A DNA stretch of 18,861 bases from Candidatus Firestoneibacteriota bacterium. Lineage in GTDB: Bacteria > Oederibacteriota > D2-FULL-39-29 > JBBTED01. The notes under the pieces were generated by a model. The model was not told where the DNA came from, did not search any database, and worked only from the letters and a program-made list of their open reading frames with translations. The translations under genes were made by a program, and so were the position numbers. The DNA is taken from the NCBI GenBank assembly GCA_038042445.1, contig JBBTED010000134.1, positions 1 to 18,861 of the forward strand. Reading direction: 5' to 3'. Within the stretch, counting starts at the first letter, position 1; the number at the start of each line of letters is the position of its first letter. Shown here one piece after another: positions 8,866 through 18,861 of the stretch.

Positions 8866-9591
8866 TTAATTGTGTTCTTCTGTTGCTGTAGCTCCGGCAA
8901 TATATATTATAGATAAACTTGTAAATACTAATGCTTGTATAAAACTTACAAGAGTTCCAAGAAGAATTATTGCAGGCCTTAATATTAGAGGAACGAGGAG
9001 CATAATTTTGCCAATAACTCCGGGTACATCTAAGAATACAATAAAAAGAAAGCCAAGCATTCCAAGCAATATTTCTTTAGCCATTATATTCCCGAATAAA
9101 CGTATTGATAATGATAAAGGTCTTGCGAGTTCACTTATTATATGGAGTGGGAAAAACAATGGTGCAAGCCAGTATGGAGGTCCCATAAAATGTTTAATAT
9201 AACCCCAAAGCCCTTTTTTCTTAATGCCTAAGTAGTGCGTGGAAAAAAATACAACGAGTGCTAATGCGACAGTTGTATTAATGCTGGAAGTTGGAGATTT
9301 AAATCCGGGTAGTAAACCTAACAGATTGGAGAAAAATATAAAAAGAAATATAGTTAAAAATAAAGGCGTGTATTTTATTCCTTCTTTACCTATAGTACCT
9401 TCACTTAAAGCGCTTATTTTTTCGAATCCCCATTCTAATATGTTTTGTAGTTTGCCTGGTATTATTTTGACTTTCATAGTTGCAATTGCGCATAAAATAA
9501 TAATAGCTGCCATTACAACCCATGACATTGTTATTATTTCAGGGACACCTGGCAAATGTAGTAATATTGGACCTTCTAAGCCTTCACTCAT
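8866..9591 (-). CDS. atpB: ATP synthase Fo subunit a
   Basis: PGKLQN..E, FIFFSNLLGLLP, PTS.INTT.ALAL, ELARPLSLSIRLFGN (essential Arg164), IQALVFTSL...YI. Confidence 0.97.
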   Translation of the reverse strand: MSEGLEGPILLHLPGVPEIITMSWVVMAAIIILCAIATMKVKIIPGKLQNILEWGFEKISALSEGTIGKEGIKYTPLFLTIFLFIFFSNLLGLLPGFKSPTSSINTTVALALVVFFSTHYLGIKKKGLWGYIKHFMGPPYWLAPLFFPLHIISELARPLSLSIRLFGNIMAKEILLGMLGFLFIVFLDVPGVIGKIMLLVPLILRPAIILLGTLVSFIQALVFTSLSIIYIAGATATEEHN

Positions 9592-11003
9592 TTTAGTAGC
9601 AGTTTTTTATTTTCTTCTTCAACTGCTTTTTTGTATTCAGTTATTAAAGTTTTTATTTCAGCATCATCAGGAATATTTTTTACCAATGCTACTAATTCAT
9701 TTGATGTTGAAATAACTTTTCCCAAATTATCTAAAGTAAATATAAGTTTTCCAATGTATTGTCCATTTTGTCCTGCTTGTACTAAAAGCACATTTTTTAT
9801 TTTCTCAGGTTGTTTTAATAGGGTTTGAGAGTGGCCACCAACTATTACATCAATTCCATCAATATTTTCAGCTAATTTTCTGTCTTCATCATATCCTGCA
9901 TGTGTTACTAAAATTGTTAAATTAACCTTGCCTTTGATTTCCTGCAAAATTTCAGAAATTCTTTCTTTTGGGTCTGAGAATTTTAAATTTTCTTTTATTG
10001 CTTTTGGAAAGAAAGTAAAAGCTTTTGGTGAAACTATACCAATAACAGCAACTTTGTATTTCCCAATTTCTTTAATTATATAGGATTTTCCCAGTGGTCT
10101 GCAATTAGTTAGTGTGCAGACTTCAAAATTAGCGGCTACGAGTGGGAGATTGTTGGTTTGGGCTTCTTTCACAATAAAGTCTGTTCCTAAAATTAATTCC
10201 TGGTCACCTGGAACCATTACGTCGTATTTAAGTAAATTAAATGCTTTCGATACATATTTTGCTTTAAGTTCGTCTTCTCTTGCAGAAAAAAAATCACCAG
10301 AATCTACAAGTATGTATGATGTATTTTCTTTTCTGAATTCTTTTAAAAATGTGGCACGTCTTAATAAACCACCAAATGGATTTTCCGGACATTCACAGGA
10401 TTCAAGATGGCCATTTGTGCTATTAGTATATAAAAGTGTAATTTCATTTTTTGCTTTTTCAATTTTGGGAGTTTGGACCACTGCTTCTTTTTTTAATTCT
10501 GTGATTAAGCTTTCTAATTCTTCTACTAATTTAGGGTCATAGCCATCGAAATGTTTTTTTATTGTTCCATTCTTTCCTATTACAAAAAGTTGTGGAACAG
10601 TTGCTCTGTTATTTTCTACAACCTTAAACCATTTTGCCAAACGTATTCCATAAGGGTCCAATAAAACCGGTATTTTGAATTTGTGTTCCTGAATATAAGG
10701 AGCAACTTCTTCTTTGCCTTTGGGATCTATACTTACCAAACGCACTTTTACGCCTTTACCTTCATACTTCAAATATATTTCCTGAAGTAGTGGTATTTCA
10801 TTAAGGCAGGGTTTACATTGGGTATCAAAAAATGAAAGTATTACTATGTTTCTACTTGATTCATCGCCAAGTAAAGCATTAAGACTTTCTGCGCCACTAT
10901 CTAATTTGTCTAATTTAAAAGAAGGGGCTGGATCATTAATATTAAATGCATATACATTTATTGCAAAACTTACTAAAAAAACTACTGCAAATACTTTTTT
11001 CAT
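9588..11003 (-). CDS. Exported fusion protein: TlpA/ResA-like thioredoxin (CKPC) + UshA-like (5'-nucleotidase N-terminal, calcineurin-like fold) domain with CxC motif
   Basis: Start re-placed at ATG 11003 (AAGGTGA SD), giving signal peptide MKKVFAVVFLVSFAINVYA. APSFKL...SFFDTQCKPCLNEIP.L...PVLLD...VPQLFVIGKNG. Then LLYTNSTNGHLESCEC...GGLLRRAT...VDSGD...PGDQE...AAN...THAG...IDVIVGGHSQ...VQAG..G.YIGKL. ATGA overlap with atpB. Confidence 0.85.
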   Translation of the reverse strand: MKKVFAVVFLVSFAINVYAFNINDPAPSFKLDKLDSGAESLNALLGDESSRNIVILSFFDTQCKPCLNEIPLLQEIYLKYEGKGVKVRLVSIDPKGKEEVAPYIQEHKFKIPVLLDPYGIRLAKWFKVVENNRATVPQLFVIGKNGTIKKHFDGYDPKLVEELESLITELKKEAVVQTPKIEKAKNEITLLYTNSTNGHLESCECPENPFGGLLRRATFLKEFRKENTSYILVDSGDFFSAREDELKAKYVSKAFNLLKYDVMVPGDQELILGTDFIVKEAQTNNLPLVAANFEVCTLTNCRPLGKSYIIKEIGKYKVAVIGIVSPKAFTFFPKAIKENLKFSDPKERISEILQEIKGKVNLTILVTHAGYDEDRKLAENIDGIDVIVGGHSQTLLKQPEKIKNVLLVQAGQNGQYIGKLIFTLDNLGKVISTSNELVALVKNIPDDAEIKTLITEYKKAVEEENKKLLLK

Positions 11004-11106
11004 ATTTTTCACCTTTTTTATAATGATTAACAACATATATATAACAAATTAATTGTTTTAAAGCAACATTTTTATGTAATTGGGTCAATTACGGGTGTAT
11101 GATTTG

Positions 11107-11283: not shown

Positions 11284-11469
11284 ATGAAAAGCTTATTAAA
11301 GTTAGCTAAGCATGATGAAAAAAAGGAAATAGAATTTGAAATGAATTATTTGGCATCTTTAACTGTAGAACAGCGATTCAGAATGCTTTTTCAGAAATCT
11401 GATGAAATGAAAAAAGTACTTTTACGAAATGGGCATAGAAAAGCTTTTGAAATTATTAAAAGAAAATAA
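11284..11469 (+). CDS. Small helical protein, probable partner of the downstream nucleotidyltransferase
   Basis: 61 aa, charged, contains Y.ASLTVEQRF. Overlaps the NTase gene by 41 bp, an arrangement typical of two-gene TA-like modules. Confidence 0.65.
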   Translation: MKSLLKLAKHDEKKEIEFEMNYLASLTVEQRFRMLFQKSDEMKKVLLRNGHRKAFEIIKRK

Positions 11470-11872
11470 GGTTAAGTTTGTGATTATAGGTGCAACAGCT
11501 TTTCCTGTTTATGGATACGCGAGAGCTACTCTTGATACTGATATATTTATAAAACCTGAGAAACAAAATGCTTCAAGTGTATTAAAAGCATTGAAGGAGT
11601 TTGGGTATGATGTGACAGATGTTACTGTTGAAGATTTAATTTCTAAAAAGCTATTAATAAGACAGTATACTGTAGAAACAGATGTTCATCCTTTTGTTAA
11701 AGGTGTAACATTTGAAGAAGCGTGGGAACATAAAGTTAAAGCGAAAATTGGGAAAACCGAAGTATTTTTTGCTTCATTGGATGATTTGATAAAAATGAAA
11801 AAAAGTGCAAATCGTCCAAAAGACAAAGAAGACTTAAAATATTTAGCAAAAATAAAAAAAACTATCAAATAA
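11429..11872 (+). CDS. Small nucleotidyltransferase-fold protein (DUF6036/AbiEii-like)
   Basis: FVIIGATA...YGY.RATLDTDIFI, and C-terminal SLDDLIKMKKSANRPKDKEDL. Confidence 0.8.
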   Translation: MGIEKLLKLLKENKVKFVIIGATAFPVYGYARATLDTDIFIKPEKQNASSVLKALKEFGYDVTDVTVEDLISKKLLIRQYTVETDVHPFVKGVTFEEAWEHKVKAKIGKTEVFFASLDDLIKMKKSANRPKDKEDLKYLAKIKKTIK

Positions 11873-11930
11873 ATAATATTACTATGCAAATTAGATAATA
11901 CTATAAAACTCGTTGAAATGGAGGTTTTAA

Positions 11931-13589
11931 ATGGAATATATAACTGCTACAAATAAATCAATAAGTCAGCTTATGAATGAATTTAAGGACGGACTAATAG
12001 ACGTACCGGAAATACAACGGGATGTTGTTTGGAAATCAGATCAAATAAAAGATCTTATTGATTCTATAAGTAGGGGTTTTCCATGTGGTTCTTTGATTTT
12101 ATGGGAACCACGAGAAAAAGATAAAAACTTTTTGAGGTCAATAATACGTCCTGAAAGACTAGAAAAAAATGCACCTCTACCAAAATATTTTATTCTTGAT
12201 GGGCAACAAAGATTAACAGCATTATCAGTTGTATTATTGAAGAGAGAACTATTAAAGAATCTTCTAAATGAACTAGAGGAAGAAATGCCTTATATTTACA
12301 TCAATCTTAAGAGATTTCCAAAAGAAATTGAAGCAAGAAGTTCTGCCAGTCATGATATCCATTGGGTATTATATAATAGTTTATTTGATGGAACATTAGA
12401 GGATACTGGGGAATATAAAAAATTAGATGATGCTATGAAATGTCGTATAAAAAAGCATGTACAAAATATTTTTGATTATCAATTTCCTGTTCAAATTATA
12501 CATGACCGAAATTATGCTGATGTTTCTGAAATATTTACGAGAGTCAATTCTCAGGGCACTCCATTAACTGGGGCAGAAATACACTTGGCAAAAATAGTAC
12601 CTCATTGGCCAGGAATAACACGAAAATTTCGTGAGTACCGTAAAGAACTAAGAATAAATTATTATGATTTAGACTTGAATTTTTTAATGAGAACGATTAC
12701 TGCAATTGAGTGTAATGTTCCTCAAATTAAAAAATTATCTGAAAAAATATCAAAGGATCATATTAGTAAAAACAGATTAAATGCAACATGGGAAAAAGTT
12801 AAAAAATCAACAAACAGACTAATAAAAATACTAAAAAAAGAACTTTACTTAGACAAATCAAAATATTTTACATCGAAAAATACTTTAGTTCCATTAGTCT
12901 ATTATATTTCAACAAAGAAAAGAAGTGTAGCGATAGGAAATATAAAGAAATTTTTTCCTTTGTCTCAGCTATCTGAACATTATGGTGGTGCGGCAGAATC
13001 AACATTGCGAAAGGATTTCAAAACCCTTACTGAAGCTTCTAAACCACGTTTTGGTCTTATTGAACTAGTTAACAATGTCAACTATGAATCACGTCAATAT
13101 TATCGAGGTTTAAAAATAAAAGGTGAAGATATATCTGGAATACCATCAAAGAATGTACTAGTGTTATTTATGTATGTGTTAATGAAGAGAAACAAAGCTA
13201 CTGATTGGGGTAGTAGAAACAGACTCTCATTAGAAGAGATTGAACCGAGAAATACACAATTGCATCATATATTTCCATCTAACCTTATGCTGAATGATAA
13301 GAATGCTCTTAAAAGGTACACAGAAGAGAAGGAATGTTCACAATCAGAGTATAGAGAAGCTGTAAATGATATAGCGAATATTACTTTCTTGTCAAAAGCA
13401 AAAAATATTGCTATTGGTGATGTAGCTCCATCGCAATATCTAATAAATGAAACAACACGTGAAATACGAAAAGCACATTTTATCCCAGAAAAGCCAGAAT
13501 TATGGAAAACCGAGAATTATATCGATTTTTTAGAAGAGCGAAAAAGGTTGATAGCTGAAGCAATTACAAGATTTATAAAAAATTTATAA
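11931..13589 (+). CDS. DUF262 (ParB/Srx-like) + C-terminal DUF1524/HNH-like protein; GmrSD-like modification-dependent nuclease
   Basis: VPEIQRDVVW, GSLILW, ILDGQQRLT, IFTRVNSQGTPL. C-terminal LHHIFP...IANITFLSKAKN..IG. SD GGAGGT. Confidence 0.85.
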   Translation: MEYITATNKSISQLMNEFKDGLIDVPEIQRDVVWKSDQIKDLIDSISRGFPCGSLILWEPREKDKNFLRSIIRPERLEKNAPLPKYFILDGQQRLTALSVVLLKRELLKNLLNELEEEMPYIYINLKRFPKEIEARSSASHDIHWVLYNSLFDGTLEDTGEYKKLDDAMKCRIKKHVQNIFDYQFPVQIIHDRNYADVSEIFTRVNSQGTPLTGAEIHLAKIVPHWPGITRKFREYRKELRINYYDLDLNFLMRTITAIECNVPQIKKLSEKISKDHISKNRLNATWEKVKKSTNRLIKILKKELYLDKSKYFTSKNTLVPLVYYISTKKRSVAIGNIKKFFPLSQLSEHYGGAAESTLRKDFKTLTEASKPRFGLIELVNNVNYESRQYYRGLKIKGEDISGIPSKNVLVLFMYVLMKRNKATDWGSRNRLSLEEIEPRNTQLHHIFPSNLMLNDKNALKRYTEEKECSQSEYREAVNDIANITFLSKAKNIAIGDVAPSQYLINETTREIRKAHFIPEKPELWKTENYIDFLEERKRLIAEAITRFIKNL

Positions 13590-13654
13590 AAAAATACAAA
13601 AAAGTAAGTTGTAAATTGATTAGTTTTTATGATAAAAGTATACAGGTAAAAAAT

Positions 13655-14113
13655 ATGAAATTTTTAGAAGTGCTTAAATCAAGAAATGGCAAAATATTAG
13701 ATATTGATTTGTTAGAGCCATTGGTTGAAAATGTGTGTCAAAGATTTAAAATCCAGCTTTTATACCTATTTGGTTCTTATGCAACAAAGAATATCTCTAA
13801 ATTAAGTGACTTGGATATTGCGTTTTTTGCAAGCGATGATATTAAATTAGAGAAATGGGGTCAATTTTTAGGAGAACTTCAAGATATCTTTGAAGAGGAA
13901 GCTATAGACCTTGTAGATTTAAAAAATGCACCTCTTCCTTTGATACATAGAATATTAAGAGATGGCAAATGTCTTTATGCAATAAATTTGGAAAGCAGGA
14001 TAAATTTTGAAACCAGGTCTGAAACATTTTATCAAGATACAAAATATTTACGTATGGAGTACTTTGATGCTTTACTAAGGAGAATAGAAAATGGTACCTT
14101 TGGGTGTAGATAA
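13655..14113 (+). CDS. mntA: MNT (minimal nucleotidyltransferase) antitoxin of a HEPN/MNT type VII TA system
   Basis: LFGSYATKNISKLSDLDIA matches GSx10DxD; IDLVDL..AP..L...I.RDG. ATG 13655 preferred over TTG 13616. Confidence 0.88.
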   Translation: MKFLEVLKSRNGKILDIDLLEPLVENVCQRFKIQLLYLFGSYATKNISKLSDLDIAFFASDDIKLEKWGQFLGELQDIFEEEAIDLVDLKNAPLPLIHRILRDGKCLYAINLESRINFETRSETFYQDTKYLRMEYFDALLRRIENGTFGCR

Positions 14114-14525
14114 AGAAAAACTATTTCTTCAATTAAATCGATTAGAAGAATTATTAATACAATTAGAAAATGTGAAAAAAAGTTTATTAGCTAAAGAAAA
14201 AGAGTTTATATTAATACCTGCAATTGAAAGATTATTACAAATATCTATAGAGGAATGTATTAATATAGGCAATCATATTATTTCAGGCTTAATGCTTAAG
14301 AGAGCAGATAGTTATAAAGAAGTGTTTGCTATTTTGAGAGAAGCAGATATTTTATCAAAAGATACAGGTGCGGAAATGGAATCTTTTGCTAAATTCAGAA
14401 ATAAACTCGTGCATTTATATTGGGTGGTTGATAAAGAAGAGCTATATGCAAAACTTGAACAAAAAAATATTATAAAAAGTTTTGTCATAGAAATAACAAA
14501 GTACTTGAATAAAAAATTACCATAA
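14091..14525 (+). CDS. hepT: HEPN (DUF86) RNase toxin
   Basis: ERLLQISIE.CINIGNHII, and RNKLVHLY matching Rx4HxY. Overlaps mntA by 23 bp. Confidence 0.88.
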   Translation: MVPLGVDKEKLFLQLNRLEELLIQLENVKKSLLAKEKEFILIPAIERLLQISIEECINIGNHIISGLMLKRADSYKEVFAILREADILSKDTGAEMESFAKFRNKLVHLYWVVDKEELYAKLEQKNIIKSFVIEITKYLNKKLP

Positions 14526-15625
14526 TGAAAAATCTATTAATTAGTACTTTTTTGATTGCCATCTTTTCTTCTGCTGGGTTCACTGCAGATAAAGAAGGAA
14601 TTGTTGTGAAAAATACGGATAGGGATACTTATTTTTACTCCTGTAAATATGTAAAGGCTGATGGGTTAAAAAAAGTATTAGAAGAATTGGTTTCTCCTGT
14701 TGGAAGAGTTGTTTATTCTGAAGAGTTAAATATGTTGGTAGTTTCCGATGTCCGGGAAAATATTCCTGCAATAAAAGAATATATTAAAAATTTAGATATA
14801 TATATTCCACAAGTGTTAGTAGAAGCAAAAATCGTGGAACTTACTACAGATTCTGATTTTGAATATGAAATAGCACATTCTTTTACATCAGGGTCAGATA
14901 CAAGTGTATTACAGGATAAAACAAAACTGAATTTGCCGACTCCTGGTGCTAATCCAAATACTAATGCAGGCGGAATTTTTTCATTAAGAACTTATACTAA
15001 TAATGCGAATATGTTAGATAATTATTTGCGGGTGTTAGTTACAAATGGTAAAGCCAAGATTTTGTCAGCTCCGAATCTTGTTGTGGATAAAGGAACAGAA
15101 GCGAGTATTATTACAGGTGAAGAAGTGCCTGTGCAGTCTGCAACTGTGGTGTCAGGTTCAGTAAGCACAACTACTCAGTTTAAAAAAGTAGGAGTGAAAT
15201 TGAGAGTTGTTCCTATTAATATAACTGAGGATAGTGTTAAATTAGAGATAAATCCGGAAGTTTCTACAGTTACAGGTTATACTAATTCTGGTTCAAGTGG
15301 AGTTTCCAATCCTATAGTAGCGCTTAGAAATACAAATACAGTACTTACTGTAAAAGATGGAGAAATGATAACAATTGGCGGTTTAATGAGAAAAGAATCA
15401 CGAGATGTAGTAAAGCAGATTCCAATATTGGGCGATATACCGTTAATTGGTCTTTTATTTAGAAGTGTACGGGAACAGACTGTAAATACTCAGCTTATGT
15501 TTTTCTTGAAAATCAAAATTTTAAAAGAGGGAATAGTTGATGGAGTTCAAATTTTCAGGCCTGATGAAAAGCAAAAAGAAATTGATAAAGAAATAGAAGA
15601 CATTGAGAAAAAAATTAAAGAATAA
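14525..15625 (+). CDS. Minimal outer-membrane secretin (signal peptide + single N3-like domain + secretin domain)
   Basis: KYVKA..LK.VL...N.LVVSD...I..LD...PQVLVEAKIVE, GKAKILSAP.L, A.I.TGEEVP, VGVKLRVVP, V.DGE.ITIGGL, signature IPILGDIPLIGLLFRS. Confidence 0.9.
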   Translation: MKNLLISTFLIAIFSSAGFTADKEGIVVKNTDRDTYFYSCKYVKADGLKKVLEELVSPVGRVVYSEELNMLVVSDVRENIPAIKEYIKNLDIYIPQVLVEAKIVELTTDSDFEYEIAHSFTSGSDTSVLQDKTKLNLPTPGANPNTNAGGIFSLRTYTNNANMLDNYLRVLVTNGKAKILSAPNLVVDKGTEASIITGEEVPVQSATVVSGSVSTTTQFKKVGVKLRVVPINITEDSVKLEINPEVSTVTGYTNSGSSGVSNPIVALRNTNTVLTVKDGEMITIGGLMRKESRDVVKQIPILGDIPLIGLLFRSVREQTVNTQLMFFLKIKILKEGIVDGVQIFRPDEKQKEIDKEIEDIEKKIKE

Positions 15626-17105
15626 AATTATCGCACTGGCTATATTAACTTCTATAATCATAATAGCAGTAGTTTTTATCTCTAAATCCAAAACACAAAA
15701 TACAAAAGTTGATGAAAACAACAAATTTTTCAATGCAGAAAAAGGTGACCTTCCTGTATTAATAGTTCAGACAGGTCAGCTTAAAGCCTCTCAATCCTAT
15801 AAAATTAAAGCTCCAATTATTCCGGGTATATCACGTGATTTAAAACTTGAATGGATAGTATCTGAAGGCTCTAAAGTAAAAAAAGATGAAGTGATTGCGA
15901 AACTTGATAGGGAGCCGATTCAACAGGATATAGATAATTTGACTGCTGAACTTGAATCAGAGAAGGCATTATTGTCTATTGAAAAAGAAAATTTTAAAAT
16001 TCAGGAATCGCAAAACATTTTAAATTTAAACACTGCAAAAATTAATCTGGAAAATTCAGGAAATGAATTAAAAAAATATAACACTCTGGAGTTACCAACA
16101 CAAATTAATGAATTTGAAGTAAAAACAAATGCTGCAAAAATCAAATATGAAGAAGCACAAAAGAATTTAAAAAATCTGCAGCAACAGGCAGAAAGCCAGT
16201 TATTTGTTGAAAGCTCGCAGGAGGCAGATACAAAAAAGAAAGTTGAAGATGCAAAAAAAATAGTGGAAAATGCTAAAACATTATTAGAATCCACGGAATT
16301 GGAATATAAAATTTTTAAACGTTACACGTCTCCTGAGCAACTTGGAAATAAAATGACTGCTTATGAAAAAGCAAAAATGGATTTGGAAAGAACAAAAGTT
16401 ACGTCAGGGTCATCTATTATACAAATACAAGAAAGAATACGACAAAAGGAAAGAACAATAAAAGATAAGGAGACAAAATCCAAAAAATCAAAAGAATATC
16501 TGGAACAGCTTATACTAAAAGCGCTTGTGGATGGCTTAGTTATTTATAAGGATGTAGATTTGCCATATTGGAGAGCTTCAACAGATGAAATGAAGGAAGG
16601 TAAGATAGTAAGACCAGGAGAGGTAATAATTACTATACCGGATTTATCTGCTTATGAAGTATCTGTGGAAATTGGAGAAGAATCCAGAAGTAAATTAAAA
16701 GAAAAAATGGATGGTACAATTAAAATTGAAGCTATTCCTGATTTGATATTACATGGAACTATAAAAACTATAAGTAATTTGGCAAGGTCGTCAGCTGCAT
16801 GGGATCCATCTTCTCCAAAGGTTTATGATATTATATTTACACTTGGAGACTGTAATGAAGAAATGAAACCCGGTATGTCTGCAAAAGTTGAAATTCTTAT
16901 AGAAAAATTAAAAGATGTTTTATATATACCAATAGAAGCAGTTTATGAATCTGAAGATGAAAAATATTGCTATGTAAAAACTTCAGCTGGACCTGAAAAA
17001 AGAATTATAAAAGCAGGAAAAAGTAATGACAGTTTTATTGTAATTATAGATGGTTTAAAAAAAGGCGAGACTGTTTATCTCTTTAACCCAATAAAAAAAG
17101 ACTAA
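15603..17105 (+). CDS. Membrane-fusion / periplasmic adaptor protein (HlyD/MacA-like) with long coiled-coil hairpin
   Basis: N-terminal TM anchor, lipoyl halves V.EGSKVKKDEVIAKLD and LKALVDGLV, PGEVIITIPDLS, MKPGMSAKVEI, VLYIP.EAV, GLKKGETV. TTG start overlaps the secretin end. Confidence 0.9.
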   Translation: MRKKLKNKIIALAILTSIIIIAVVFISKSKTQNTKVDENNKFFNAEKGDLPVLIVQTGQLKASQSYKIKAPIIPGISRDLKLEWIVSEGSKVKKDEVIAKLDREPIQQDIDNLTAELESEKALLSIEKENFKIQESQNILNLNTAKINLENSGNELKKYNTLELPTQINEFEVKTNAAKIKYEEAQKNLKNLQQQAESQLFVESSQEADTKKKVEDAKKIVENAKTLLESTELEYKIFKRYTSPEQLGNKMTAYEKAKMDLERTKVTSGSSIIQIQERIRQKERTIKDKETKSKKSKEYLEQLILKALVDGLVIYKDVDLPYWRASTDEMKEGKIVRPGEVIITIPDLSAYEVSVEIGEESRSKLKEKMDGTIKIEAIPDLILHGTIKTISNLARSSAAWDPSSPKVYDIIFTLGDCNEEMKPGMSAKVEILIEKLKDVLYIPIEAVYESEDEKYCYVKTSAGPEKRIIKAGKSNDSFIVIIDGLKKGETVYLFNPIKKD

Positions 17106-17128
17106 AATTATCAGATTATTTCATAATG

Positions 17129-17151
17129 GTAGCCGCAGGCTTTAGCCTGCG
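17129..17151 (+). repeat. Single copy of the GTAG REP
   Basis: GTAGCCGCAGGCTTTAGCCTGCG, identical to 7198-7220. Confidence 0.9.
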
Positions 17152-17161
17152 AAGAAAAACA

Positions 17162-18418
17162 ATGGATTTGACATTTACAGTAAAATTAGCACTTGAAAAT
17201 CTATCGTTGCACAAATTGCGTTCTTTGTTGACAATGCTTGGTATAATATTTGGAGTGGCAGCACTTATTTCAATGTTATCTATTGCTGCAGGAGCTGAAA
17301 AGAAGACTTTGGAACAAATAAAAACATTAGGGATTGAAAATATAATTTTGAAAAGTATCAAGCCACTTGGAATTAAAAAAACAACAAATAGAGATGTAGA
17401 AAATATTGTTTATGGAATAAAAAGAAAGGATATGAATAGTATAAAAGAAGTTTTTTCAAAAGTTAAAATGGTAGTTCCAATTAAAGAGTTAAATCAGCAA
17501 ATTTACTCCAATTTTCAAAAAAAAGATATAAAAGTTATTGCTACAACAATGGATTATTTGGAAGCCACTAAATCTAAAATTGAAAAAGGAAGATTTTTTA
17601 ATAATATTGATACTACTCAGAATAAACGAGTATGTGTGTTAGGAACAAAAGCAAAACAACAGCTTTTTTCATATCGTGTGTGTTTGGGTGAGTATATCAA
17701 AATTTCAAAAATTTGGTTTAAAGTAATAGGCATTTTTGAAAATACAGCAGACACAAAATCAGCAACGGGTAATGACAGCAACAATTATATTTATATACCA
17801 TATTCCACTGCTATAGTTAATTTTGGAGACAGATATACAAAGCAGGAATCTGGGGTTTCTGAAAGTTCAACAATTGAGATAGATCAATTATATATAACTA
17901 TGCAGTCTTCGGACTATATAGAAGCGGCTGCTGATAGGTTGAAAAGTTATATGCAAAAAATACACAAAAAAACTGATTATGAAATAGTTATTCCATTAGA
18001 TTTATTAAGACAAAAAGAAGCAACACAAAGAACTTTTAGTATTGTTATGGCTACTATTGCCGGTATTTCATTGCTTGTAGGTGGAATAGGAATAATGAAC
18101 ATTATGTTGGCGAATATATATGAAAGAACAAAAGAAATTGGAACAAGAAGGGCATTAGGTGCAAAAAAAACAGATGTTTTAATACAATTTTTAACAGAAG
18201 CTATTTTACTTACAAATGTGGGTGGAATTATAGGAATATTTTTAGGTGTAGGAATAGCATATCTTGTTGTATTTTATGCCAAATGGCCTGTAATTATTCA
18301 ACCATATAGTATTATTTTATCCTTTTTAATTTCTGGAATTATAGGAATAGTATTTGGAACTTATCCAGCATACAAAGCTGCAAATCTAAATCCAATAGAC
18401 GCATTACGATCAGAGTAG
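17162..18418 (+). CDS. MacB/FtsX-family ABC transporter permease (no fused ATPase)
   Basis: KLRSLLTMLGIIFGVAALI, periplasmic core with GRFF...VCVLG, GGIGIMNIMLANIYERTKEIGTRRALGA...QFLTEA, YPAYKAANLNPIDALRSE. Start placed at ATG 17162. Confidence 0.93.
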   Translation: MDLTFTVKLALENLSLHKLRSLLTMLGIIFGVAALISMLSIAAGAEKKTLEQIKTLGIENIILKSIKPLGIKKTTNRDVENIVYGIKRKDMNSIKEVFSKVKMVVPIKELNQQIYSNFQKKDIKVIATTMDYLEATKSKIEKGRFFNNIDTTQNKRVCVLGTKAKQQLFSYRVCLGEYIKISKIWFKVIGIFENTADTKSATGNDSNNYIYIPYSTAIVNFGDRYTKQESGVSESSTIEIDQLYITMQSSDYIEAAADRLKSYMQKIHKKTDYEIVIPLDLLRQKEATQRTFSIVMATIAGISLLVGGIGIMNIMLANIYERTKEIGTRRALGAKKTDVLIQFLTEAILLTNVGGIIGIFLGVGIAYLVVFYAKWPVIIQPYSIILSFLISGIIGIVFGTYPAYKAANLNPIDALRSE

Positions 18419-18455
18419 CAGATTTCAAATTATTACAAAAAAACTTAAAAATAAC

Positions 18456-18484
18456 TTGACAAATGCATTAAAGTGTGCTATAAT
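18456..18484 (+). promoter_or_regulatory. Consensus sigma70 promoter with extended -10
   Basis: TTGACA (18456-18461), 17 bp, TATAAT (18479-18484), preceded by TGC. A-rich UP-like tract upstream. Confidence 0.85.
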
Positions 18485-18493
18485 TATATTAAG

Positions 18494-18861
18494 ATGAGTA
18501 AAAATAAGATAATACGTGCCGAATTAGGAAAAAGGCCTCTAATGAATGAGGAGAGAAGATTTGGAATTCTTGATATTGTAAATACAAAAAAAAGTCGCAC
18601 AGTAAAGGAATTGGCAGAAGAACTCTATGTAGATGGTTCTACTATACGAAAAGATTTGAAAATCCTTCATAAAAAAAATTTGCTTAAAAGAACATTTGGA
18701 GGAGCTGTATCTTCTTCATATCCAGTTACTTATGAACCTGTTCATTTAATTCACAAAGAAGAATTTATAGAATACAAGAAAGCTATTGCATTAAAAGCAG
18801 TTGAGTTTATAAATGAGAATGATACTATTTTTCTTGAGGCAAGCACAACAGTTTTACATTT
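18494..18861 (+). CDS. DeoR/GlpR family transcriptional regulator (3' truncated by the window end; not in the ORF track)
   Basis: Manual translation: MSKNKIIRAELGKRPLMNEERRFGILDIVNTKKSRTVKELAEELYVDGSTIRKDLKILHKKNLLKRTFGGAV...KKAIALKAVEFINENDTIFLEASTT. Alternative start at ATG 18542. Confidence 0.9.
   Translation, partial: MSKNKIIRAELGKRPLMNEERRFGILDIVNTKKSRTVKELAEELYVDGSTIRKDLKILHKKNLLKRTFGGAVSSSYPVTYEPVHLIHKEEFIEYKKAIALKAVEFINENDTIFLEASTTVLH

Follow-up and report, generated by a model that had tools for sequence, protein, structure and literature searches.

The 18,861-nucleotide stretch of DNA analysed here (the window), contig JBBTED010000134.1 of a Candidatus Firestoneibacteriota bacterium (assembly GCA_038042445.1), carries three consecutive genes, for a secretin, a MacA-like adaptor of the membrane-fusion protein (MFP) type and a MacB-type permease. 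These three genes are the local version of a four-gene module that consists of a secretin, a MacA-like adaptor with a long hairpin, an ATP-binding cassette (ABC) ATPase and a MacB-type permease. Comparison of the related gene and protein sequences leads us to favour, by some way short of certainty, a model in which a minimal secretin takes the operon slot of TolC, and most likely its role, in a MacAB-like ABC exporter. The initial annotation of this DNA had suggested that the secretin might be the outer-membrane exit of an ABC/MFP complex, and comparative genomics supports that suggestion through the exclusive use of the slot, the clades formed by the module's proteins and the hairpin of the adaptor. 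As far as can be told, the secretin-linked MacAB-like module is real, conserved and undescribed.

The linkage of secretin and adaptor is conserved, and it excludes TolC. One genome per species was scanned with a nine-sequence MFP alignment, which gave 67 loci; their neighbouring genes were mapped by phmmer, Pfam and a TolC profile, and the slot was taken as the same-strand gene directly upstream of the adaptor. The adaptor relatives are about 500 aa long and 30–35% identical, and they come mostly from Lentisphaerota/Victivallales, with others in Planctomycetota (Tepidisphaeraceae, Sedimentisphaeraceae and Phycisphaerae), Kiritimatiellota and Verrucomicrobiota. The slot holds a secretin gene in 41 of the 67 loci (41 of the 59 in which it can be read), a TolC-family gene in 15, and neither in three, which are Verrucomicrobiales with a fused MacB; in the other eight it is cut off by a contig end. 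Typically the operon runs from the outer-membrane gene through the adaptor and the ATPase to the permease, and an ABC ATPase gene followed by a MacB-type permease gene stands after the adaptor in all 37 secretin loci that can be read there (four are cut). No gap separates the secretin and MFP genes in the window or in most relatives, their start and stop codons being overlapping or adjacent. With the TolC profile, no TolC-family open reading frame (ORF) was found in the 41 secretin loci within the flanks examined.

A scan of metagenome contigs gave the same picture for the upstream gene. It yielded 48 loci, with a secretin upstream of the adaptor in 29 of 29 readable cases (19 were cut) and, by the TolC profile, no TolC-family ORF in any of the 48; when the window's MFP was the sole query, no metagenome relative was found. 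A linkage that was not conserved, or a tolC gene in homologous clusters, had been named at the outset as telling against an exit through the secretin. Instead, the linkage recurs throughout both scans, and the TolC genes of the family lie in the 15 sister loci, in the secretin's slot. The ATPase and permease genes are absent after the adaptor in 15 of the 29 readable metagenome loci, which makes the secretin–adaptor pair the tightest unit of the module and indicates that split arrangements occur naturally. The ABC-less sub-lineage comprises L131, L132, L135–L140, L143, L145, L147, L151–L153, L161 and L163. Two of its members were annotated (L139 and L163), and in both an EIIA-like gene precedes the secretin and adaptor genes, after which come unrelated convergent genes. 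The EIIA-like protein combines a zinc ribbon with a phosphotransferase system EIIA-type domain and hints at regulation or at a different inner-membrane engine. A further locus, L036, is assigned to Bacillota bacterium MAG104 and has the complete secretin–adaptor–ATPase–permease module, which clusters tightly with the Tepidisphaeraceae copies; it is either a mis-binned contig or another transfer outside the Planctomycetes–Verrucomicrobia–Chlamydiae (PVC) group.

Phylogenetic trees indicate that the parts of the module have travelled together. The MFP tree has 67 rows, namely 65 loci, the window and, as outgroup, the genome's own MacA, two short rows having been left out. All 42 secretin-linked rows, the window's included, fall with two cut rows into one clade, with a support of 99 in the Shimodaira–Hasegawa-like approximate likelihood ratio test (SH-aLRT); the window MFP is the deepest branch of this clade, and every known TolC-linked row lies outside it. 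The secretin tree has 54 rows, 30 of them MFP-linked (the window and 29 of the 41 loci) and 24 of them other secretins, five from the window's genome and 19 from five carrier genomes. The 30 MFP-linked secretins form one clade (SH-aLRT 96) apart from the 24 others, which come from the same six genomes and lack an adjoining adaptor gene. Thus the window secretin does not group with secretins of the type II secretion system (T2SS), type IV pili (T4P) or Tad pili; a grouping with T2SS or T4P secretins had been listed in the initial annotation among the outcomes unfavourable to its proposal. Within the clade, the window secretin is sister to a Tepidisphaeraceae group (SH-aLRT 95), to which it is 40–45% identical, and the main groups of the secretin clade recur in the adaptor tree. 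For the ATPases, 31 of the 67 loci were used to limit redundancy, and all 17 secretin-linked ATPases fall into one clade (SH-aLRT 94). Together, the MFP, secretin and ATPase clades indicate that the module had a single origin, next to its TolC-linked sisters, and that its parts have since been passed on jointly.

The adaptor itself differs between the two kinds of locus. An AlphaFold2 model built with 35 relatives (mean predicted local distance difference test score, pLDDT, of 86.5) has an N-terminal membrane helix, MacA-like lipoyl, beta-barrel and membrane-proximal domains, and one uninterrupted alpha-hairpin formed by helices 104–198 and 204–302 with a tip at 199–203. MacA of MacAB-TolC ranks first for this fold (Foldseek, 3.9e-22), and a profile of 35 relatives matches MacA structures at 1e-24. 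Each arm of the hairpin would be about 140 Å long, an estimate from about 1.5 Å per residue and not from coordinates. The hairpin insert, measured from one lipoyl half to the other, is 211 residues in every one of the 41 secretin-linked adaptors measured (the window and 40 loci, with one truncated row left out), whereas in the TolC-linked sisters it is 203 in 12 of 15, 232 in two and 284 in one; in the genome's own MacA it is 87. The eight surplus residues of the secretin-linked adaptors sit at the predicted hairpin tip. If the tip met a different outer-membrane partner at a fixed distance, one would expect a hairpin of locked length among proteins about 30% identical, and a tip specific to the clade, as seen here.

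One tip pattern is shared by 10 of 15 TolC-linked MFPs with the genome's own MacA and is absent from all 41 secretin-linked ones, although it was derived post hoc and carries little weight. The motif R-x3-L-x6-S, given in a published passage as the TolC-binding motif at the hairpin tip (PMC3391258), was rejected as a discriminator, since it is missing from both groups (0 of 41 secretin-linked MFPs and 0 of 15 TolC-linked sisters) and does not occur in the genome's own MacA. The TolC-linked sisters (L060–L098) likewise have very long hairpins, locked at 203 in most of them, so the long hairpin is older than the switch to a secretin; it may have to do with a wide periplasm in the phyla concerned.

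The window secretin has the features of its superfamily (PF00263) by Pfam, AlphaFold2 and Foldseek: a signal peptide, one N3-type ring domain at about residues 25–90, a C-terminal beta-barrel domain at about 96–333 and, last, a helix at 346–365. Pfam finds no N0/STN domain in it. The AlphaFold2 model has a mean pLDDT of 70.9, with about 90 in the N3 block, and by sequence and Foldseek the nearest solved structures are T2SS GspD/ExeD, then PilQ, InvG, pIV and RcpA. Its orthologues, of 397–549 aa, likewise have a single Secretin_N domain and no N0, and they carry an extra N-terminal linker, which in the Tepidisphaeraceae includes a lipobox cysteine; the window protein is the shortest version seen and has an ordinary signal peptide without a lipobox. 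In every secretin system known to us, the inner-membrane partner binds N0. As for the short secretins, pIV works with the phage proteins pI and pXI, and RcpA with Tad pilus genes. The window secretin resembles both (pIV of f1, PDB 7OFH; RcpA, PDB 8ODN) in being short, in having few N domains and in matching them significantly, but neither kind of partner is encoded in the window, and the genome's Tad secretin is elsewhere. Its best secretin and N3 domain matches are to GspD/ExeD/PulD of the T2SS (PDB 6I1X, 5WQ7, 5WQ8 and 6HCG), from which it differs in having one N domain, without N0, N1 or N2, and 366 aa against roughly 650; unlike T2SS secretins, it is linked to no GspC, GspE, GspF or pseudopilin gene. 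The linkage typical of T4P and Tad secretins, with PilMNOP or RcpC/TadZ/CpaF genes, is also absent, and the protein lies outside the PilQ and RcpA clades. The pore is a true secretin, yet one outside the T2SS, T4P, Tad, type III secretion system (T3SS) and phage systems.

The three genes of the window and the other features with coordinates are listed in Table 1. Secretin and MFP genes overlap by 23 bp, an overlap that the ORF coordinates reproduce as first described, together with the length of the secretin. For the permease gene, the ATG at 17162 (Met-13; 418 aa) is the more likely start, and from it the 56-bp gap reported earlier holds; from the ATG at 17126 (430 aa) the gap is 20 nt. NCBIfam models for GspD, PilQ, MacA and MacB match the three proteins, all far under their curated cut-offs (for example, 179.6 bits against 351 for GspD and the window secretin), and the type_I_hlyD model reaches 31 bits against a cut-off of 209. 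The permease aligns to the MacB model over model residues 254–647 only, and neither Pfam nor NCBIfam finds a nucleotide-binding domain on it. By phmmer, it matches the permeases of secretin-linked loci at 1e-94 to 1e-122, and those of loci then scored as TolC-linked at 1e-78 to 1e-95. Domain scans of 21 window ORFs confirm that no pilin, GspE/F, T3SS or OEP/TolC domain is present. The gene content of the cluster was thus described correctly in the initial annotation, in which the missing ABC ATPase gene and nucleotide-binding domain had gone unremarked.

Table 1. Features with coordinates in the window and, where stated, elsewhere in the assembly
Feature	Position	Strand	Remarks
AhpC/TSA-type thioredoxin-fold and calcineurin-like metallophosphoesterase protein	9588-11036	-	482 aa
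DUF6036/DUF2204 nucleotidyltransferase and GmrSD type IV restriction endonuclease	11429-13589	+	upstream of the export genes, same strand
MntA/HepT type VII toxin-antitoxin pair	13616-14525	+	NCBIfam MntA 6.1e-24, HepT 2e-23, both over cut-off
Secretin gene	14525-15625	+	366 aa; Pfam Secretin 1.9e-40 and one Secretin_N 2.5e-8
MacA-like adaptor (MFP) gene	15603-17105	+	500 aa; TTG start; weak Pfam HlyD_3, HlyD_D23 and Biotin_lipoyl_2
Spacer between MFP and permease genes	17106-17161	.	slot of the ABC ATPase gene in relatives
MacB-type (type VII ABC) permease gene	17126-18418	+	Pfam MacB_PCD 6.9e-34, FtsX 1.2e-23
DeoR-family regulator gene, 5' part	18473-18861	+	Pfam HTH_DeoR; cut by the contig end
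Orphan MacB/LolD-type ATPase gene	G000:C95:21091-21798 (L101 6092-6799)	-	no neighbouring permease gene

The genome around the cluster makes its secretin the odd one out. The window is one whole contig (G000:C134) of an assembly of 2.81 Mb in 181 contigs that is about 90% complete, and the host is probably of the Firestonebacteria lineage and outside the PVC group, to judge by a single marker protein, the ATP synthase beta subunit, which shares 77–81% identity with proteins assigned to Candidatus Firestonebacteria. Its secretin is the sixth of the genome; the other five, on C158, C72, C38, C90 and C63, each stand beside T4P, T2SS or Tad genes. One is a 749-aa PilQ-like protein encoded before aroB, aroC and aroK, one follows PilM/N and PilO genes, one accompanies pseudopilins, GspF, GspE and PilMNO, one, on C90, is of the Tad type and lies with RcpC and CpaE/F, and one is near a PilM gene. 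For a genome of 2.8 Mb, six secretins are many, as are its four or more distinct sets of pilus- or T2SS-like genes. About seven TolC-family genes account for the 15 OEP-repeat matches of the genome, and C95 carries a canonical TolC–MacA–ATPase–MacB operon. The window secretin is therefore the only one without pilus or T2SS neighbours, in a genome that has an ordinary MacAB-TolC as well. Whether tolC or T2SS genes occur elsewhere had been raised as a check on the idea of a secretin exit; both do, and the T2SS/T4P-like cluster has its own secretin, on C38. The same holds more widely for TolC, with OEP matches in all five carrier genomes checked, so that the secretin is no stopgap for a lineage lacking TolC.

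In the mechanism that we propose, the MacB-type permease and its ATPase would turn ATP hydrolysis into movements in the periplasm, the mechanotransmission known for MacB. The adaptor would assemble as a tube atop the permease, and its fixed-length hairpin, about 140 Å long and with a clade-specific tip, would reach the periplasmic face of the secretin at the N3 ring or gate. Periplasmic cargo would then be expelled through the secretin's wider, gated pore. The docking site, the stoichiometry, the outward direction of transport and the kind of cargo are all extrapolated from sequences and structural models. We are more reserved, at slightly less than even confidence, about a stronger form of the model, in which the module is a distinct class, a "secretin-capped ABC exporter" in which a MacB-type pump and a long-hairpin adaptor of six subunits would drive folded cargo from the periplasm through a gated secretin, with neither pseudopilus nor TolC. 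Such an exporter would be the first case known of a secretin co-opted by machinery other than that of type IV filaments, type III systems and filamentous phages. A tripartite ABC pump that exits through a secretin has a fair chance of meriting the name of a new class of secretion machine. The secretin–adaptor pair may also be a portable outer module for inner-membrane engines encoded elsewhere, as in the window and the 15 metagenome loci.

Several points weigh against the exporter model. Physical docking and pump activity are predictions, and docking would require a symmetry mismatch, since adaptors form hexamers and secretins 12- to 15-mers. TolC could serve in trans, as its genes are present in this genome and in the five carriers. 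No conserved cargo or accessory gene was found beside the module, the largest neighbour family occurring in 5 of the 41 loci. The trees come from quick maximum-likelihood searches with SH-aLRT support only and have several long branches, the window's included. Lastly, the window lacks the ATPase gene that all 37 readable secretin-linked genome loci carry, and the orphan ATPase on C95 is not orthologous to the ATPase of the module.

The missing ATPase bears on the standing of this particular copy. No ABC ATPase gene or remnant was found in the window, where tblastn with four cognate ATPases gave nothing under E = 1. The slot of the ATPase gene is occupied by a G+C-rich inverted repeat at about 17134–17151, with a 7-bp stem and a 4-nt loop in a region of 30% G+C, and this palindrome may have been left by a deletion or may act as a small regulatory hairpin. 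Of the genome's four MacB/LolD-type ATPases, three are encoded beside their own permeases and one, on C95, is an orphan that adjoins ychF and a gene for a 414-aa protein without a Pfam match. As the displaced cognate ATPase, the orphan was rejected, because in the tree it groups with the ATPase of the genome's own MacAB-TolC operon (SH-aLRT 99), a paralogue to which it is 58% identical. Either a MacB-type ATPase encoded in trans, for which this orphan is a candidate, drives the permease, or the window copy no longer works.

The copy was likely acquired horizontally. No full-length match was found in 40 nearer relatives of the host, nor any adaptor at E <= 1e-25 in the 98 other genomes of the phylum, the window's genome being the sole carrier among 99; moreover, the cluster follows GmrSD and MntA/HepT genes, with the secretin ATG overlapping the HepT stop. 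These observations, taken with the palindrome and with an ATPase slot that is empty in contrast to all 37 relatives, would also fit a decaying remnant whose three genes have lost their function along with the ATPase. We regard this explanation as unlikely, although not negligibly so. The three reading frames run uninterrupted over their full length (366, 500 and 430 aa), and none of the residues that the family alignments show as invariant has been lost from the proteins. The orphan ATPase is available without a permease of its own, the split secretin–MFP arrangement occurs naturally in metagenomes, and a partner gene may lie in the unassembled part of the genome.

A different explanation accepts that the genes cooperate and dispenses with the conduit. 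Here, the MacB-type unit and the adaptor would assemble, insert, gate or repair the secretin in the manner of FtsEX or LolCDE, and the cargo of the secretin would arrive by another route. These two MacB relatives act on periplasmic partners and pump nothing through a duct; several orthologous secretins, those of the Tepidisphaeraceae, have a lipobox cysteine, and the pair is kept without adjacent ABC genes in the 15 metagenome loci. Against this stand the full MacA architecture of the adaptor and its length-locked hairpin of about 95 residues per arm, which fit a spanning tube, and the presence of TolC in the same slot of sister operons. Because the window secretin lacks a lipobox, a Lol-like role cannot be general, and we consider a non-conduit function improbable. 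Least probable by far is that the adaptor and ABC unit rely on a TolC from another locus and that the secretin is an unrelated neighbour serving a pilus or T2SS with parts elsewhere: TolC-family genes are indeed at hand, and secretins are plentiful (6 to 12 matches in each of the five carrier genomes), but secretin and adaptor genes stay linked and overlapping, at about 30% identity, in Lentisphaerota, Planctomycetota and Kiritimatiellota as well as in this non-PVC genome, the secretins have their own clade with groups mirrored among the adaptors, the tip insert of eight residues is fixed relative to the TolC-linked sisters, and the genome's five other secretins already have pilus or T2SS genes beside them.

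Known export systems share parts of this composition. Among MacB-family exporters of periplasmic or envelope cargo, PvdRT-OpmQ handles a siderophore, DevBCA-HgdD a glycolipid and Aat a protein, and to our knowledge all three use a TolC-family outer-membrane factor and none a secretin. More generally, the characterised tripartite pumps of the ABC, resistance–nodulation–division and major facilitator superfamily types, and type I systems, all exit via TolC-family ducts as far as we know, and we know of no characterised secretin that serves anything other than pili, T2SS, T3SS or filamentous phage. The closest system is MacAB-TolC (E. coli; PDB 5NIK, 9QGY and 3FPP), which has the same MacB_PCD and FtsX permease domains and a MacA-like adaptor and, in the relatives of the window cluster, the same order of outer-membrane gene, adaptor, ATPase and permease. 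It differs from the module in its outer-membrane gene, which in the module is a secretin, and in the length of the hairpin insert, which is 211 in the module and 87 in the MacA of this genome; the ATPase is a separate gene in the module's relatives and is missing in the window. The cluster thus lacks two defining features of the MacAB-TolC family, a TolC partner in the operon and an ATPase. It is also unlike type I secretion, since its permease is of the MacB/FtsX type and not of the HlyB type.

In the full-text literature, a search that did not extend to subscription-only papers or supplements, we found no description of a secretin joined to a MacB/MFP system, and no paper with "secretin", "HlyD" and "FtsX" together. 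The passage of a 2021 review of tripartite systems that matches "secretin" is not about a secretin (PMC8277102). In the portion that concerns secretins, a 2019 study of the evolution of type IV filaments discusses their co-option within the type IV filament superfamily (PMC6668835).

If the exporter model is right, a pump that plugs into a secretin would join two fields, TolC-type pumps and secretin systems. It would offer a very simple, four-gene export route for bulky periplasmic cargo, and structural biology would have to explain how the adaptor tube, which is probably six-fold, fits onto a secretin ring of 12- to 15-fold symmetry. In Lentisphaerota, Planctomycetota and their relatives, many of which are polysaccharide degraders of gut and sediment, the module would amount to a widespread and unrecognised secretion route. 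The 211-residue hairpin and its clade-specific tip are direct targets for mutagenesis. The window copy, for its part, would point to transfer of the module between phyla and to its existence without an ATPase gene of its own.

The surroundings of the cluster bear on its expression and on the end of the contig. The HepT stop and the secretin ATG have one base in common (TAATG), so read-through from the toxin–antitoxin unit into the export genes is possible. The DeoR-family gene downstream has its own consensus promoter at 18456–18484 (promoter scan score 12/12) and marks the end of the operon. The DNA at 18452–18861, promoter included, is 95% identical to G000:C164:4538-4947, where the DeoR copy is situated between glycoside-hydrolase genes, and this repeat, which breaks the assembly, explains why the contig ends at the DeoR gene. 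Another short secretin gene is followed immediately by a third DeoR paralogue (G000:C72:27140-27964; 69% protein identity). The DUF6036/DUF2204 and GmrSD genes at 11429–13589 form a small defence island that adjoins the export genes. Further genes of the window encode NfeD, a response regulator, a bactofilin, an M23 peptidase and an F-type ATP synthase operon, and the fusion of a peroxiredoxin with a phosphoesterase at 9588–11036 looks unusual.

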